From the NCBI GenBank assembly GCA_947631785.1, contig CANRMR010000001.1, positions 9,022 through 73,021 of the forward strand: a stretch of 64,000 nt of DNA. The letters are read 5' to 3'. This stretch comes from an uncultured Clostridia bacterium (lineage in GTDB: Bacteria; Bacillota; Clostridia; TANB77; CAG-508). The position numbers and the translations under genes are program-made. Under the pieces are notes generated by a model, which saw only the letters and a list, made by a program, of their open reading frames with translations, ran no database searches and was not told where the DNA came from. Of the stretch, positions 364-16,779 are shown piece by piece; position 1 is the first letter of the stretch; each line of letters opens with the position of its first letter.

Positions 364-397
364 TTGTTTGTATACTATAAGAATATTCTTCGAAAAA

Positions 398-423
398 GCG
401 GGCGATTAAAATCGCCCCTACAC
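398..423. repeat. Solo GC-rich hairpin gcgggcgattaaaatcgcccctaca. It is the same motif as the subterminal hairpins of the ~260-bp elements at 12804 and 46820
   Basis: Exact motif match to 12997-13020 and 47006-47030. It sits 3' of recR, so it may act as a transcript-end or stabiliser hairpin. Confidence 0.6.
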
Positions 424-488
424 AAACTGAGGTAATGTTTTAGAATTTATTAATTTTAAAAACAGTAACAAATAAAAGTGTATATAAA

Positions 489-1616
489 TTAATTCAATAA
501 AATTTCACAAATATCTTTTGTGGAATTTTTTTTTGCAAATAGTCTTGCTCTAATTTTCATATGTCTAATTTGATTTGGATTATTAAACAAATCAGTTAAA
601 ATTTGTTCGATGTTATCTTCTTTTCTAATCCATATGGCCAATTTATTTTTTTCCAAAAATTCTGCATTTTCCTCTTCTTGACCAGGAATAGGATTTATTA
701 CAATTATAGGAAGGCCAGAAGCCAAACTTTCAGTAGTTGTAAGACCACCAGGTTTTGTAATTACCAAATCAGCTATACTCATAAGTTCTGGAACTTTATT
801 TGTAAATTCGATTATTTTAATTGTATCATGCTTTTGATAAGTGTCTACAATGTTTTGAAAATTTTTTTTCATTTTTTGGTTTTTACCAGAAATTGCAACA
901 ATTTGAATATCCATAAAATTTTTAGCAAATGCTTCTAACATTTGGTATGTATTTTTTTTACCTAGTCCAAATTCTCCGCCTGCAAAAAATAAAACGGTTT
1001 TTTTATTTTTTGACAGACCAAAAAAATCAAGAGTTTTTTGTTTATCATAATGTTCTAAAAAGCGATTAGATAAAGGAATACCAGTTGCAAAAATCTTTTC
1101 TGAATTTATATTTTTTTCTTCTAAAGCTTTTCTCATTTCATTATGAGCAACAAAAAAATAATCAATATAGTCAGACAAAACAAGCCACTGATCATGTGGT
1201 GCATAATCTGTCATAATAGTTGCAATTTTAGCATTAATTTTTTCCTTTTTTTTCAAATAAGCACACATTTGGCTAGAAAAAGGATGTGTGGATATAATTA
1301 AATCTGGATTAATTTCTTCTAATAATTTATCTAATTTAAAAGATAATAACCTATTTGAAGTATTACTAATTTTTGCAAGTGGTCCCTTTTGAGATTTAGA
1401 ATAAATTCTTCCCCACAAACGAGGTGTTTTTTTTGCTAAATCTTTATATGCTTTTGTTGTTATATTATTAATATAATGATTAATATATTCAATACAGTCT
1501 ACTAAATATGTTGTGCAACTATCTGAATAATATTTATCTATACATTCTTTAATAGAATTTGCAGCACTTAAATGTCCACCACCATATGATGCATAAAAAA
1601 TTAAAATATTTTTCAT
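489..1616 (-). CDS. ugtP: Diacylglycerol glycosyltransferase of the MGDG-synthase / UgtP family
   Basis: 375 aa. N-terminal YASYGGGHLSAANSIKE and C-terminal GT28-like ITKPGGLTTTESLASGLP motifs. Confidence 0.7.
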   Translation of the reverse strand: MKNILIFYASYGGGHLSAANSIKECIDKYYSDSCTTYLVDCIEYINHYINNITTKAYKDLAKKTPRLWGRIYSKSQKGPLAKISNTSNRLLSFKLDKLLEEINPDLIISTHPFSSQMCAYLKKKEKINAKIATIMTDYAPHDQWLVLSDYIDYFFVAHNEMRKALEEKNINSEKIFATGIPLSNRFLEHYDKQKTLDFFGLSKNKKTVLFFAGGEFGLGKKNTYQMLEAFAKNFMDIQIVAISGKNQKMKKNFQNIVDTYQKHDTIKIIEFTNKVPELMSIADLVITKPGGLTTTESLASGLPIIVINPIPGQEEENAEFLEKNKLAIWIRKEDNIEQILTDLFNNPNQIRHMKIRARLFAKKNSTKDICEILLN

Positions 1617-10901: not shown

Positions 10902-12803
10902 ATGAAAATAAATAATTTAAAAATAAATAAATTTGGTAAATTAGAAAATAAAGAAATTAATTTAAAAAATAAAATAAATATTATTTATGGAAAAAATGAA
11001 AGTGGAAAATCTTCATTATTAGAATTTATAATATCTATGTTTTATGGTTTATCTAAAAATAAAAAAGGAAAACAAATATCTAATTTTGAAAAATATACAC
11101 CATGGGAAGAAGGAGATTTTTCTGGAAAAATATCATATGAATTAGATGATGGAAAAAAATATGAAGTATTTAGAGAATTTAAAAAGAAAAACCCAAAAAT
11201 ATATGATGAAAATTTAAATGATATTAGTAAAGAATTTAACATAGATAAAACAAAAGGAAATAATTTTTTTTATGATCAAGTAAAAATAGAAGAAGAATTA
11301 TTTTTATCTACAATAGTATCAAAACAACAAGAATTAAAACTAGAAAAAAATGTACAAAATAATTTAATACAAAAAACTGCAAATATAGTTGAAACAGGAG
11401 AAGAAAATATTTCTTTTGAAAAAATAATAAATAAATTAAATAAAAAACAAATAGAAGAAATAGGAACACAAAGAACACAAGATAGACCAATTAATAATAT
11501 AGAAAAAAAATTAAAAAAAATAAACGAAGAAAAAGAATTATTAAAAAATTATATTGAAGAAAAAAATAATATAAATAATTATAAAAATGAATTAATAAAA
11601 AAAATAAATAAAAAAGAAATTAAATTAGAATTAATTAAAAATATAAAAAAAATAAATGAAGAAAATAATTTAAAAAATGAAAAAATAAATATTAATAAAA
11701 ATTATTTAAATAATTATGAAGAAAAAATAAAAGAAAAAAATAATGAATTAAATAAAATAAAAGAAATAAAAATAGAAAATAAAAAAATAAAAAATAATTT
11801 TTTAAAAAATATAATAATTCCTATTTTATTTATTTTAATTAATTTAATTTTATTTATTTTTTTAAAAAATATAATTATAAATTGTATAGGCATTTTAATA
11901 TTATTTATTTATTTAATATTTATTTATAAAAATAATAAAAAAATAAAATTAAAAATAAAAGAAGAAGAAAAAATAAAAAATAAAATAATAGAAAATAAAA
12001 ATAAATTAGAAGAAGAAATAGAAGAATTAAAAAAAGAAAAAATAAAAAAACAAGAAGAAATAAAATTAGAAGAAGAAAAACAAAATGTAGAAAATAAATT
12101 AGAAAAAGAAAAAATAAAAAATAATTATTTAAATAAAATAGAAGAAAATGAAATAAATAATTTAATAAATAATATTAATATAAATTATTTATTAGAAAAT
12201 GAACAAAACGAATTAAATGAATTAAAATTAAATATTCATAAATTAGAATTAGAAGAAAAAAATATTTTAAATAATTTAGAAAAATTATCTGAATTAGAAG
12301 AAGAACAAAAAAATTTAGAAGAAAAATATGAAGAATTAGAAAAAGAAAATAAATATATTAATATGGCAAAAGAAGAAATAGAAAAAGCATATATAGAAAT
12401 GAAAGAAAAAATTTCACCAAAATTTACAAAAGAATTATCTTCAAATATTAGTAAAATAACAAATGGAAAATACACTAATGTAAAAATAAATGATGATGGA
12501 ATAATAACAGTAGAAACAAAAAATGGAAATTATACAATATTAGATACATTAAGTGTAGGTACAATAGAGCAATTATATTTATCACTAAGGCTAAGTTTTA
12601 TAGAAGATATATCAAACGAAAAAATGCCAATAATGTTAGACGAAGCATTTGCATTTTATGATGATGAAAGATTAGAAAGTATACTAAATTATTTAAATAA
12701 AAAATATGAAAATAGACAGATATTATTATTTACTTGTACGAATAGAGAAAAAGAAATTTTAGATAGGCAAAAAATACCTTACAATTTTGTAGAAATAAAT
12801 TAA
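10902..12803 (+). CDS. SbcC/YhaN-like AAA/SMC-type ATPase with a central TM segment and a K/E/N-rich coiled coil
   Basis: N-terminal Walker A GKNESGKSS; C-terminal signature/Walker B (LSVGTIEQ...MLDEAFAFYD). The internal hydrophobic stretch IIIPILFILINLILF resembles Bacillus YhaN. Confidence 0.65.
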   Translation: MKINNLKINKFGKLENKEINLKNKINIIYGKNESGKSSLLEFIISMFYGLSKNKKGKQISNFEKYTPWEEGDFSGKISYELDDGKKYEVFREFKKKNPKIYDENLNDISKEFNIDKTKGNNFFYDQVKIEEELFLSTIVSKQQELKLEKNVQNNLIQKTANIVETGEENISFEKIINKLNKKQIEEIGTQRTQDRPINNIEKKLKKINEEKELLKNYIEEKNNINNYKNELIKKINKKEIKLELIKNIKKINEENNLKNEKININKNYLNNYEEKIKEKNNELNKIKEIKIENKKIKNNFLKNIIIPILFILINLILFIFLKNIIINCIGILILFIYLIFIYKNNKKIKLKIKEEEKIKNKIIENKNKLEEEIEELKKEKIKKQEEIKLEEEKQNVENKLEKEKIKNNYLNKIEENEINNLINNININYLLENEQNELNELKLNIHKLELEEKNILNNLEKLSELEEEQKNLEEKYEELEKENKYINMAKEEIEKAYIEMKEKISPKFTKELSSNISKITNGKYTNVKINDDGIITVETKNGNYTILDTLSVGTIEQLYLSLRLSFIEDISNEKMPIMLDEAFAFYDDERLESILNYLNKKYENRQILLFTCTNREKEILDRQKIPYNFVEIN

Positions 12804-13063
12804 AGTTACTAGTTAATGGTTTTATATTTAATAAAACTACAAAAGCTAGCCATATTTGGTGTAGGGGCGATTTTAATCGCCCGCCACTTCAAAGAATTTT
12901 CTTAATAAATATTATGTATAAAAATATATATAAATTTTTTATAAAATTGTTTTATATCAAAAAAATTATATAGGTCATGCCTAACATTGGTCTTCGGGCG
13001 ATTAAAATCGCCCCTACAGCTTTACATGTTAAACATCCGATAGTAATAAGACCATTATCCTGT
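12804..13063. mobile_element. ~260-bp MITE-like non-coding element, copy A. It has ~20-bp imperfect terminal inverted repeats (ttactagttaatggtttt...) and GC-rich subterminal hairpins (ggggcgattttaatcgccc / gggcgattaaaatcgcccc)
   Basis: ~90% identical to 46820-47079. No ORF inside. Its ends are the reverse complement of each other. Confidence 0.7.
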
Positions 13064-13094
13064 AACAAATTAAAAAATTAATCTTAAATAGCTA

Positions 13095-13158: not shown

Positions 13159-14217
13159 ATGTTTCAAAAATTAGAAGATGTAGAAAAAAAATATGAAGAG
13201 TTGACACAAAAAATTAGTGATCCAAATGTAATTGCTCAAAATAAAGAATGGCAAAAACTTATGAAGGAACATTCAGATATGACTCCAATTGTAGAAAAAT
13301 ATAGAGAATATAAAAAAACAAGTAAACAAATAGAAGATGCAAAGGCTATGTTAGATGATCCAGAATTAAAAGAACTTGCGGAAATAGATATTATGGAAGC
13401 AAAAGAAAAACTTCCACAAATAGAAGAAGAACTTAAAATATTATTAATTCCAAAAGACGTAAATGATGACAAAAACATTATATGTGAAATAAGAGCTGGT
13501 GCAGGAGGAGAAGAAGCAGCATTATTTGCAGGGGATTTGTTTAGAATGTATTCGATGTATGCAGAAAGAAAACATTGGAAAATAGAAGTATTAAATGAAA
13601 ATGAAACAGGAATTGGAGGATATAAAGAAATATCTTTCATGGTAACAGGAAAAGGAGCATATAGCAGATTAAAATTTGAAAGTGGCGTTCATAGAGTACA
13701 AAGAGTTCCAGATACAGAAAGTAGTGGAAGAATACATACATCAACAGCTACGGTAGCAGTACTTCCAGTTGTTGAAGATGTTGAAGTGGAAATTAATCCA
13801 GCAGATATAAAAATGGATGTATATAGGGCTTCGGGCGCTGGAGGACAGCATGTAAATAAAACATCATCAGCCGTAAGGTTAACACATATTCCAACAGGAA
13901 TAGTTGCAGAATGTCAAACCGAAAGATCACAAGTACAAAATAGAGAATATGCTATGAGGCTACTTATGTCTAGGTTATACGAAATGCAGCAAAAAGAGCA
14001 AGATGAAAAACTTGCAAATGAAAGAAAAAGTCAAGTAGGATCAGGAGATAGAAGTGAAAAAATAAGAACATACAACTATCCACAAGGTAGAATTACAGAC
14101 CATAGAATAGGGCTTAGTATATTCCAATTTGAAGACTTCTTAAATGGTAACTTAGATGAAATGATAGATAGTTTAATTACGGCAGATAGAGCAGAAAAAC
14201 TAAAAGGAGAAGAATAA
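13159..14217 (+). CDS. prfA: Peptide chain release factor 1
   Basis: 352 aa. GGQ motif [18 protein letters not shown], and an RF1-type N-terminus [15 protein letters not shown]. Confidence 0.9.
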
Positions 14218-14650: not shown

Positions 14651-15664
14651 ATGAAAGATGAATATATAAAAAAATTTTATAATGAAATATGTAATTCTTT
14701 AGACGGAAATTACAAAATAATATTAGAGCCAAAAAGAAACCTAAAAGAAGATTGGATTGAATATGATCAAGTAAAATGGGATTTAGAAGAAGAGCTTCAA
14801 ACATTAGTAAATAAACTATTACAAGATAAAACTTTAACTTTTGAAGAAAAAATTATAGAAGTATATAAATTTATATGTTTAAAATACATATATGATGATA
14901 ATGTGTTGTTTTTCTTTAGAAAAGACACAAGTGATATTGAAAATATAAAGTATATAGCTGTGGATTGGTATGGAAGAATAGTAGATGATAGTTGGAAAGA
15001 AAATCGAAAAAAACACAATAGAAGAATATGCTATGAATTTGCTAGATATTATGCAAAAGCAATAAATGAATTATTAGATGGAAATGAAAACTTAGAAGCC
15101 TGTATGATTGGAGATAAAGAAAATACACATTATGTTGTAGGACTAACAGGAAAAGAATATAGTGCTATTTTAGATTTAGATGATTTTAATAAAATAAAAG
15201 ACTTAACAAGATTAAAACTTGGTTTAACAATTAAGGGGATAAACATATTAAGAGATGAAACTGGAAAACTTCAAGCTGCAGTCGATAATTTTAATAAAGA
15301 CAGGTTAAATGATTTATTAGAAGTAGAAAAAGCAAAAAATGATTTAAAATCAAAGAGCATTATTAAATATTTTAGCAAAATTGTAGAAATCTTAAATTCT
15401 TATAATATAGATTCACAAGGATTTATGGAATACATGAGATCTATAGTTGAAGCAGAAGAAATTGAAATTGAAAAAGTTTGGAAAGAAGTTAAGGGCGGAC
15501 CAGAAAAAAGATATGTTAGATGTTTAATATTTGAATTTGAAGCAAAGATGTATTTAATAGATAGTGTTGAGCAAACATTAAGTCAGATAAATAAGGAAAG
15601 TCTAGATAAAAATATATTTATATTTAATCCGGAAGAAAATGAATATGCTTATTATGGTGGATAA
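14651..15664 (+). CDS. Putative transglutaminase/papain-like cysteine peptidase-fold protein, paralog 1
   Basis: Start ATG 14651 after RBS aaaggaaaag. Candidate triad Cys (HNRRICYEFARYYA), then His 45 aa later (THYVVGL), then Asp 13 aa further on (AILDLDD). This is the spacing expected for the TGase-like fold. ~40% identical to the downstream paralog. Confidence 0.45.
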   Translation: MKDEYIKKFYNEICNSLDGNYKIILEPKRNLKEDWIEYDQVKWDLEEELQTLVNKLLQDKTLTFEEKIIEVYKFICLKYIYDDNVLFFFRKDTSDIENIKYIAVDWYGRIVDDSWKENRKKHNRRICYEFARYYAKAINELLDGNENLEACMIGDKENTHYVVGLTGKEYSAILDLDDFNKIKDLTRLKLGLTIKGINILRDETGKLQAAVDNFNKDRLNDLLEVEKAKNDLKSKSIIKYFSKIVEILNSYNIDSQGFMEYMRSIVEAEEIEIEKVWKEVKGGPEKRYVRCLIFEFEAKMYLIDSVEQTLSQINKESLDKNIFIFNPEENEYAYYGG

Positions 15665-15687: not shown

Positions 15688-16779
15688 ATGAGTAAAAATG
15701 TAAAAAAAATTATAAAATTAAATGAATTAGTATCATTATCTTTACATAGAAAACATACAATTGTTTTAAATCCAGAAGGAAGAAAAGATATAGAAGATTT
15801 AGATGAAGATATAGTATATGATAAAAGAGAATGGAAAATATCAGATGAATATCAAACATATATTAATGAATTAATTAAAAATAAAAATTATAGTACAGAA
15901 GACAAAATTCTTAAAGTTTATGAAAAAATAGGACTTGATTATATATATGATGACAATTTAATATCATATATAAAAAAGGTTGATGATGATATATTTACTT
16001 TACCAGAGTGGTATGGAAGAGATATAGATGATAAATGGGAGGAAAACAGGGAAACACATAACAGAAGAATTTGTTATGAGCTTTCTAGGTATCTTGCGAA
16101 ATCTCTAACAGAATTATTAAAAAATGATGAAAATTATAGTGTTTGTATACATTGGAATAAAGAACTTACACATTATTTTGTAGGACTAATTTGCAATGAT
16201 TATTGTATTACTTTAGATCCAGATGATTTTTTTAATATTAAAGATTTAACACGTTTAAAGACAGGATTAACTGTAGAAGGTATAAAAATTTTAGTAGATA
16301 AAGGAAATAAATTTGGTAATGCTCTTAAAAAATTTAATGAAGGTAAAAGTAAACATGCTATAAAAAAATTAGAACATGAATTAGAAGAAGATAGCTTATC
16401 TTATTCTATTAACGAAGACGAAGAGGTAAAAGAAAGTGAAGATGTTATTTTTTTAAAAAAAGCGGTCGAAATTTTAGCTGGTGATAAATATAAACTAGAT
16501 TCACAAGGAATATTTGAATATATGAAAGAAGTTATTGATATTAAATATGGATCAGATAAAAGAGAAAAAATATGGAAAGAAATTCATGGAACATCTAATG
16601 AATCTAAACGATATATAAGGTCACTTATAGTAAATATTGATAATAAAAAAATATTAATAGATGTTGATAAAAAAGAAGTACGTGCATTTGACGAAAAAGA
16701 ATTTGAAATTAAAAGACCAGTTTACATACGATATAATGATTTAAATAGAAATCAACATGACTTCTATAACGGAAAATAA
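15688..16779 (+). CDS. Putative transglutaminase/papain-like cysteine peptidase-fold protein, paralog 2
   Basis: HNRRICYELSRYLAK / THYFVGL / TLDPDD in the same spacing as paralog 1. Shared blocks DLTRLK.GLT..GI.IL and DSQG..EYM. Confidence 0.45.
   Translation: MSKNVKKIIKLNELVSLSLHRKHTIVLNPEGRKDIEDLDEDIVYDKREWKISDEYQTYINELIKNKNYSTEDKILKVYEKIGLDYIYDDNLISYIKKVDDDIFTLPEWYGRDIDDKWEENRETHNRRICYELSRYLAKSLTELLKNDENYSVCIHWNKELTHYFVGLICNDYCITLDPDDFFNIKDLTRLKTGLTVEGIKILVDKGNKFGNALKKFNEGKSKHAIKKLEHELEEDSLSYSINEDEEVKESEDVIFLKKAVEILAGDKYKLDSQGIFEYMKEVIDIKYGSDKREKIWKEIHGTSNESKRYIRSLIVNIDNKKILIDVDKKEVRAFDEKEFEIKRPVYIRYNDLNRNQHDFYNGK

Follow-up and report, generated by a model that had tools for sequence, protein, structure and literature searches.

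The two 262-nt sequences described here probably belong to one REPIN/BIME-like composite repeat, REP-based and non-autonomous, in a lineage of AT-rich (27% GC) uncultured gut Clostridia. One of them is found in one strain and missing from another, and no target-site duplication marks the site. The window, that is the whole 64-kb stretch of DNA that was analysed, contains both copies (A and B) and a half element, the solo arm. Their features are as follows:

12805..13066, no strand: copy A of the 262-nt composite element, supported by alignment, blastn, the left boundary in contig L117 and the ssDNA fold; neighbours are an SbcC-like ATPase gene (stop at 12803) on one side and prfA (start at 13159) on the other
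12805..12825, plus strand: left terminal inverted repeat (TIR) of copy A, GTTACTAGTTAATGGTTTTAT (consensus form)
12861..12883, plus strand: left REP of copy A, GTAG followed by a 7-bp stem with a 4-nt loop (GGGCGAT-TTTA-ATCGCCC) and G
12884..12994, no strand: AT-rich core of copy A, with no gene, no Rfam family and no promoter or terminator signal above chance
12995..13017, minus strand: right REP of copy A, inverted; the minus-strand GTAG starts at 13017
13046..13066, minus strand: right TIR of copy A, 4 mismatches to the consensus
46820..47081, no strand: copy B, 262 nt, polymorphic (missing from strain contig L122), in the divergent promoter region between an HD-GYP gene (45791..46738, minus strand) and smc (from 47173)
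46820..46840, plus strand: left TIR of copy B, 3 mismatches
46876..46898, plus strand: left REP of copy B
47011..47033, minus strand: right REP of copy B
47061..47081, minus strand: right TIR of copy B, perfect consensus
378..469, minus strand: solo arm (half element) of about 90 nt, between the convergent recR (ends at 363) and MGDG-synthase-like (489..1616, minus strand) genes; minus-strand reading GTTAC ... GTAG-REP ... CTTTTTCGAAGAAT
399..421, minus strand: REP of the solo arm, followed on the minus strand by TTTTT and matching the intrinsic-terminator consensus for the 489..1616 gene

The original prediction had described two non-coding regions of about 260 bp, some 90% identical and bounded by imperfect inverted repeats of about 20 bp. 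The regions were correctly located; their ends have been refined to 12805-13066 (A) and 46820-47081 (B), since the element begins with GTTAC and finishes with GTAAC. The left boundary at GTTAC was fixed by a third, independent left flank present in contig L117. Copies A and B align from end to end, with a mean column identity of 93% in the alignment and 91.8% over 268 nt by blastn, and the predicted similarity thus holds at about 92-93% over the full length, beyond the hairpins alone. The TIRs (short form of the end sequence, GTTACTAGTTAATGG) are 21 bp long: A-left and B-right agree at 21/21 positions, and B-left and A-right carry 3-4 mismatches, so that the range is 0-4 mismatches to the consensus. 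Both copies are indeed non-coding, their small ORFs being interrupted by indels between the copies and giving no protein-family signal. The same elements are found in ENA and Logan assemblies made independently from this species, which shows that they are not an assembly artefact. The species is represented in ENA assemblies ERZ27249337, ERZ27249603, ERZ27249329 and ERZ27249118 and in runs DRR848816 and ERR10663753.

From the outside inwards, each arm consists of the TIR (21 nt), a spacer (35 nt in the left arm and 27-28 nt in the right, without homology between the two) and a REP unit (23 nt), the REPs being placed symmetrically in both arms. The two REP units of a copy, GTAG-GGGCGATTTTAATCGCCC-G, are inverted, invariant and separated by 111 nt; left and right REP are identical in A and B, in agreement with the prediction that the same hairpin recurs in inverted orientation at each end. 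Between A and B, the TIRs differ at 7/42 positions, the spacers at 5/63, the core at 4/112 and the REPs at 0/46. The window contains five instances of the hairpin GGGCGATTWWAATCGCCC, where 100 shuffles gave an expectation of 0.00. All five occurrences read GTAG-GGGCGAT-TTTA-ATCGCCC-G on one strand, with the tag that defines GTAG REPs at the 5' foot of the palindrome in 5/5 cases. As single-stranded DNA, the 23-nt unit folds into a 7-bp stem with a 4-nt loop (dG -7.3 to -8.1 kcal/mol, z about -3.5). Each complete copy folds into one long hairpin in which TIR pairs with TIR and left REP with right REP (z -8.5 for A and -7.4 for B; 0/200 shuffles as good), the joint ssDNA hairpin of inverted REPs being the structure that characterizes REPINs.

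The hairpin following recR had been taken for an isolated copy. The hairpin is there, but as part of a whole arm: about 99 nt (378-475) show 76-77% identity to the reverse complement of the left arm of the element, and the match takes in the terminal GTAAC at 465-469 as well as about 20 nt on the core side. On the minus strand, the 7-bp stem of the solo REP is followed by TTTTT directly after the convergent MGDG-synthase-like (glycosyltransferase) gene; this terminator-like REP may be an exaptation.

A scan of species-representative genomes for the 19-mer hairpin returned at least 140 occurrences in at least 116 stretches. Among the matches listed, 117 of 140 occurrences fell in about 29 gut MAGs, of animal or human origin, from uncultured, AT-rich Clostridia (24-32% GC); 125/140 hairpins were preceded by GTA, completing GTAG (the G was in the query), and 115/140 were followed by a 3' G. 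Low-GC Clostridia occurrences among these matches were outside ORFs in 111 of 117 cases, with ORFs crudely called. In the genomes listed, some REPs stand alone, others form inverted pairs with 34-194 bp between them, and others again make up tandem arrays whose period is about 30 or about 73 bp. Related MAGs have at least 10 loci or at least 17 REP copies each; in the window's own genome, five copies are visible in the 64 kb, with one further locus in L117. In 726 kb of related loci, GTAG was present on 197/492 hairpin-strand observations, and about 80% of the GC-rich perfect hairpins were GTAG-tagged on one strand. Since 40 different stem sequences lie behind the tag, tag and structure are conserved while the sequence varies. 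The GTAG tag, the GC-rich palindrome, the extragenic multi-copy occurrence and this combination of conserved structure with varying stems identify the hairpin as a member of the GTAG-tagged REP superfamily. Thus, calling the element novel was an overstatement; the REP-like reading offered at the same time gains support, from the tag on each hairpin and from the bracketing of a transposase gene by the same hairpin in five related genomes. The REP itself, identical in all five window copies and, among the matches listed, across about 29 species-level MAGs, is a conserved, constrained module.

Of 62 REPs that lie between co-directional genes among the matches listed, 50 carried GTAG on the sense strand (50:12). 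This bias could result from strand-specific insertion into the lagging-strand template or from selection at the RNA level. REPs of related genomes are frequently found immediately upstream of an RBS. In the low-GC subset, an extended unit, GATAGTGTAAAGTAATTTATGAAAAAAT-GTAG-REP-G..CTTCGAAGAAATTACTWAAA, is conserved and often lies directly 5' of the RBS. One array (L111, 4880-5260) comprises about five copies of a 73-74-bp REP unit and stops at the RBS of a gene; others are made of degenerating REPs with a 30-bp period (L087, 4990-5200) or of REP-containing units in tandem (L107, 6790-6950).

The identical 19-mer was also seen in MAG RGIG3742, of 55-62% GC (L011, L027, L029, L115), in Methylococcaceae/Gammaproteobacteria (L040, L042, L070, L079, L113) and in Saprospiraceae (L044, L078, L104), where the tag is CAATAG instead of GTAG. 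The high-GC and non-Clostridia hairpins are mostly GTAG-tagged, and methanotrophs pair the hairpin with a second one ending in CTAC. Such high-GC and non-Clostridia occurrences could be due to REP families that converged on one sequence, to RAYT/REP passed on horizontally or to contaminated bins. Only two predicted viral contigs, both from IMG/VR, contain the REP (L130, 74-95; L131, 12211-12232), in each case as the same extended unit just upstream of a gene start; they could derive from prophages of these Clostridia.

In one relative (L012), inverted REPs exactly enclose a 149-aa ORF with the HUH motif HIH (MPNHIHILL) and the catalytic-Tyr motif SFYEHIIR. The ORF scored 30 bits against Pfam Y1_Tnp (PF01797; cutoff 23). 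Its best NCBIfam model was REP_Tyr_transpos ("REP-associated tyrosine transposase", RAYT; E 1.4e-17), with 64 bits against 21.7 bits for the IS200 model, a score below the equivalog cutoff of NF047646 (64 vs 80 bits). The sole PDB match was E. coli TnpA_REP (4ER8), whose motifs align with those of the ORF. Best database match and REPtron context, which carry the assignment given a score under the curated cutoff, mark the REP-bracketed ORF as a putative RAYT (TnpA_REP-type HUH/Y1), single-copy and from a divergent clade. At E<=1e-10 the family comprises 1,539 proteins, of which JGI calls some RayT; many of the contigs are about 1 kb long, as expected if the flanking repeats break assemblies. 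Four diverged RAYTs (71-83% identity), from other genomes and with other neighbour genes, are all REP-bracketed: GTAG-GGGCGATTTTAATCGCC(C/T)-G stands 15-90 nt before the start codon and GGGCGATTAAAATCGCCC-CTAC 1-10 nt past the stop. The REPtron was thus recovered in five related genomes or lineages (L012, L132/133, L134, L135/136 and L137/138; RAYT of 149-150 aa), and two MAGs (SIG349; GCA_045593405.1) have it together with dispersed REPs. The 64-kb window yielded no RAYT by tblastn with one and then 120 family members or with a family HMM run on six-frame segments, in line with the earlier statement that it has no transposase gene.

RAYT-less "REPtron shells" were observed in two relatives. 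The one at L060 720-960 (UBA9784) has arms homologous to RAYT-flanking arms; those of the other, at L056 1990-2230 (RUG13298), resemble the L060 arms, unlike RAYT-flanking arms. Just 165-194 bp of AT-rich DNA separate the inverted REPs of these shells.

The full 262-nt element was absent from the 116 genome loci listed and from six metagenome doublets of equal REP spacing. The latter are different mosaics, with a second REP class, GGGCGGGTTCCAAACCCGCCC, and other arms. Pieces of the left arm and core edge (CTTCAAAGAA...) lie beside the REP in other MAGs, notably Lapin-022 bin51. Since the other doublets are different mosaics with the same REP, the shared module is the REP, around which each lineage has its own composites, much as in BIMEs. 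Annotated plasmid and phage collections contained no match to the 262-nt element.

Copy B is missing from contig L122, whose strain shows 99.3% identity to the window in the flanking HD-GYP gene. Window positions 46799-47088 (290 bp) are exchanged there for 12 bp, ACATTGTTTTAC. The filled allele minus the element aligns to this empty allele with few indels; as 290 bp stand against 12 bp, 28 bp of non-element sequence differ too, so that the filled/empty comparison is not clean, and the L122 allele could also have arisen by deletion instead of being a never-inserted empty site. The original prediction had proposed to look for target-site duplications by comparing filled and empty sites. None was detected at the empty site of this conspecific strain, and no consistent direct repeat flanks A or B. 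Neither an apparent 8-bp direct repeat at copy A nor a by-eye resemblance of the L122 filler to the L117 flank was significant (p 0.17-0.37, a range shared by the two tests). The flanks of A, B and C showed no significant mutual similarity and no detectable common target. The lack of target duplication fits a Y1/HUH single-strand mechanism and counts against a DDE-type MITE.

Existence of the third copy, C, is implied by contig L117 (ENA ERZ27249337 NODE_1046, 2600-2900). Here another left flank, with a left arm unlike that of either A or B, is fused, within the element, to the right half of copy A and prfA, with flank and element joined exactly at GTTAC. Either the assembly joined unlike sequences at the repeat, giving a chimera, or two copies have truly recombined. 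Three full copies (A, B and, via L117, C) and one solo arm are therefore documented in this species. Exact-protein look-ups for further empty sites, with the SbcC-like and glycosyltransferase neighbours, returned no records. In another contig (L121, 1-300; ENA ERZ27249118; coverage about 2x) the region upstream of HD-GYP runs, after ...ACATTAAAA, into DnaB-like coding sequence, without element or smc at the junction; this is probably a chimera or a rearrangement.

The copies could in principle be a classical MITE, a deletion derivative of a DDE-transposase IS recognised through the 21-bp TIRs, with the REP hairpins as passengers or decoration. The small size (262 nt), the TIRs, perfect between A-left and B-right, the non-coding intergenic character and the filled/empty polymorphism are all in keeping with such an origin, and to that extent the MITE-like label of the original prediction was apt. 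Yet neither A, B nor the empty site has a target duplication, and the TIRs are the most diverged part of the element whereas the REPs, at symmetric positions in both arms, are invariant. Approximately 0.9 Mb of related loci contained no other TIR-bearing sequence or IS; two weak TIR matches (3-4 mismatches) were not next to REPs. No IS with matching ends was found in the window, in these loci or in the plasmid and phage collections, and the latter had no match to the element either. A classical MITE is thus an unlikely explanation.

Alternatively, the element might be a RAYT locus that lost its transposase gene and was later spread by recombination or gene conversion and not by transposition. 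RAYT-less shells do exist in relatives, the L060 shell having REPtron-type arms (z 6-8 vs the L012 arms) and 165 bp between its inverted REPs; window arms and REPtron arms both start with GTTAC, the core has a marginal similarity to the REPtron leader (z about 2, p 0.03-0.06), and L117 suggests recombination between copies, if it is not an assembly chimera. Nonetheless, the window arms reached z <=2 against any REPtron arm, which is not significant, compared with z 4-8 in the positive control among the arms of L012, L132, L134 and L060. No remnant of a RAYT ORF is present, and for at least three copies at unrelated loci with sharp common ends transposition is simpler. This origin therefore seems quite improbable. 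On these comparisons, arms and TIRs appear to be lineage-specific, and derivation from a REPtron is not demonstrable.

Most improbable of all is a primary role as RNA or in regulation, in which the core would encode an sRNA, or the hairpin would be selected at its sites because it stabilises or terminates transcripts, and the repetition would be incidental: the solo REP matches a terminator consensus, and REPs in relatives are co-oriented with flanking genes and often just upstream of an RBS, but this bias is equally expected from strand-specific ssDNA insertion where genes co-orient with replication, A and B have no terminator-like site and only chance-level promoter-like sites, and the L122 strain does without copy B, which lies shortly before the -35 regions of two divergent genes. 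The suggestion that the core encodes a small RNA found no support for the same reasons and in the Rfam comparison proposed along with it: Rfam 15 gave no known family at gathering score, and permissive thresholds returned plant miRNA-precursor models only (E 0.007-0.5).

For the non-autonomous REP-based composite, mobilization can be pictured by analogy with the biochemistry of IS200/IS605 and TnpA_REP (PMC8266576). A RAYT would bind GTAG and the stem-loop on transiently single-stranded DNA and, with a 5'-phosphotyrosine as intermediate, cut at a CT/CA dinucleotide close by; rejoining of the strand at a new site would move or copy the doublet without target duplication (PMC8266576). Single REPs or arms might be left behind or exapted, as exemplified by the terminator-like solo REP. 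To our knowledge, the evidence that a RAYT can transpose REP doublets is confined to cleavage and strand transfer observed in vitro for Proteobacteria. We tentatively consider it possible that the 262-nt element is a currently active Clostridia REPIN-type replicator, in which GTAG-guided RAYT cleavage would take place some 56 nt away from the REPs, at the GTTA/CT termini, and the outer 21-bp TIRs would be a recognition/cleavage substrate and not relics. If so, natural filled/empty alleles in one gut species would offer a tractable view of REPIN transposition, and REP-RAYT biology would extend to Bacillota with 25-30% GC. We know of no direct observation of the REPIN transposition step.

GTAG-tagged REPs and REPtrons, such as E. 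coli REP/TnpA_REP, have been described previously (Nunvar 2010, PMC2817692; Di Nocera 2013, PMC3733652; Corneloup 2021, PMC8266576). Like these REPs, the present ones have a 5' GTAG followed by a short GC-rich palindrome, and are extragenic and multi-copy, in singles, inverted pairs and clusters. As in REPtrons, a single-copy Y1/HUH transposase gene is bracketed by the same REP in relatives. The perfect palindrome with a short loop recalls group-3 REPs, of which REP_Mb shares the TTTA loop. Unlike the GTAG REPs surveyed, those described here have very AT-rich uncultured Clostridia as hosts, and those of the window are embedded in a longer TIR-bounded unit; unlike known REPtrons, the Clostridia ones have a small RAYT (149-150 aa) below the NCBIfam equivalog cutoff.

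REPINs, as outlined in PMC5581495 after Bertels and Rainey, resemble the element in being non-autonomous inverted REP pairs that form one long ssDNA hairpin, with a RAYT as presumed mobiliser. By that outline, the present unit differs in its 262-nt length with a 111-nt AT-rich spacer, in the arms of about 56 nt outside each REP, which end in extra 21-bp TIRs, and in the 3-4 copies documented in the species as opposed to tens to hundreds. Enterobacterial BIMEs are likewise mosaics of REP and inverted REP with linkers, and relatives of the window genome combine the REP with other classes, linkers and tandem clusters; here, however, linkers and arms are unrelated to enterobacterial motifs, TIRs are defined and the behaviour is that of discrete insertions. 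The composite TIRs and TIRtrons of Pseudomonas putida/fluorescens also join a REP to unrelated sequence in repeated long inverted repeats, degenerate GTAG-1 REPs being linked there to unrelated stem-loops (Di Nocera 2013, PMC3733652). Sequences and hosts are different in the present case, the REP is intact and the outer TIR forms no stem-loop; still, these REP-plus-stem-loop TIRs are the nearest precedent for extra 21-bp TIRs some 56 nt outside the REPs.

IS200/IS605 elements and their PATE derivatives share with the element the Y1 HUH enzyme superfamily, a subterminal hairpin with a 5' guide tetranucleotide, ssDNA and the lack of target duplication. With both of their hairpins read on a single strand, these elements lack inverted-repeat ends. 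Derivation of the copies from such a PATE, one of the readings first put forward, was rejected: the copies end in inverted repeats, and the hairpin of one end recurs reversed at the other, where a PATE would have different LE and RE hairpins on the same strand. Moreover, IS200/IS605 insert 3' of a fixed tetra- or pentanucleotide, whereas the flanks here have no detectable conserved target, and the associated enzyme is RAYT-like (64 vs 21.7 bits). Bacterial MITEs such as Correia/NEMIS, RUP, ERIC and Bcr1 are similar in being 70-300 bp long, TIR-bounded, non-coding, intergenic and able to fold into long hairpins, but they make target-site duplications and match DDE-type IS ends, neither of which was seen.

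Work on REP and RAYT has been almost entirely on Proteobacteria. Hosts of GTAG REPs in the REP surveys are Proteobacteria, Cyanobacteria, Chloroflexi and PVC, Firmicutes being unmentioned; Bertels 2017 mentions, without more, that Group 1 RAYTs occur in Clostridia too. We found no paper joining REPIN, RAYT and Firmicutes. The element is therefore of a known kind in a little-documented host group and does not define a new class. The combination of GTAG tag, GC-rich palindrome and REP-bracketed RAYT can now be placed in dozens of species of AT-rich uncultured gut Clostridia, across which one 23-nt REP is conserved base for base. Such hairpins stand out as GC islands in AT-rich intergenic DNA, and their default annotation as terminators or sRNAs is unwarranted. 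They also break or chimerise metagenome assemblies, as in the RAYT contigs of about 1 kb and the odd junctions of L117 and L121. Presence or absence of the composite at the strain level provides a natural handle on the movement of REP doublets.

Some other features of the window were recorded. A strongly structured intergenic element (44415-44585; RNA fold z -9.5) lies upstream of a YdcC-like gene at 44679; its 36-nt arms (44420-44455 and 44543-44578) are 92% complementary and surround an inner hairpin and a GC-rich stretch, and comparison with Rfam gave nothing above noise. The smc gene is split into a 114-aa N-terminal ORF (47173-47517, SMC_N) and a 1054-aa ORF with hinge and C-terminal head (47558-50722). 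The split was called identically in an independent assembly (L120); a genuine frameshift or pseudogene, a programmed event and a sequencing error common to both assemblies are all conceivable. Within the SbcC-like gene, dense low-complexity direct repeats (11490-12410), coding for a Lys/Glu/Asn-rich coiled coil and unrelated to the element, dominate the repeat-finder output. Finally, two 297-nt stretches 1 kb apart (14963-15259 and 16006-16302; repeat family D4), about 70% identical, are probably parts of paralogous adjacent genes downstream of prfA.
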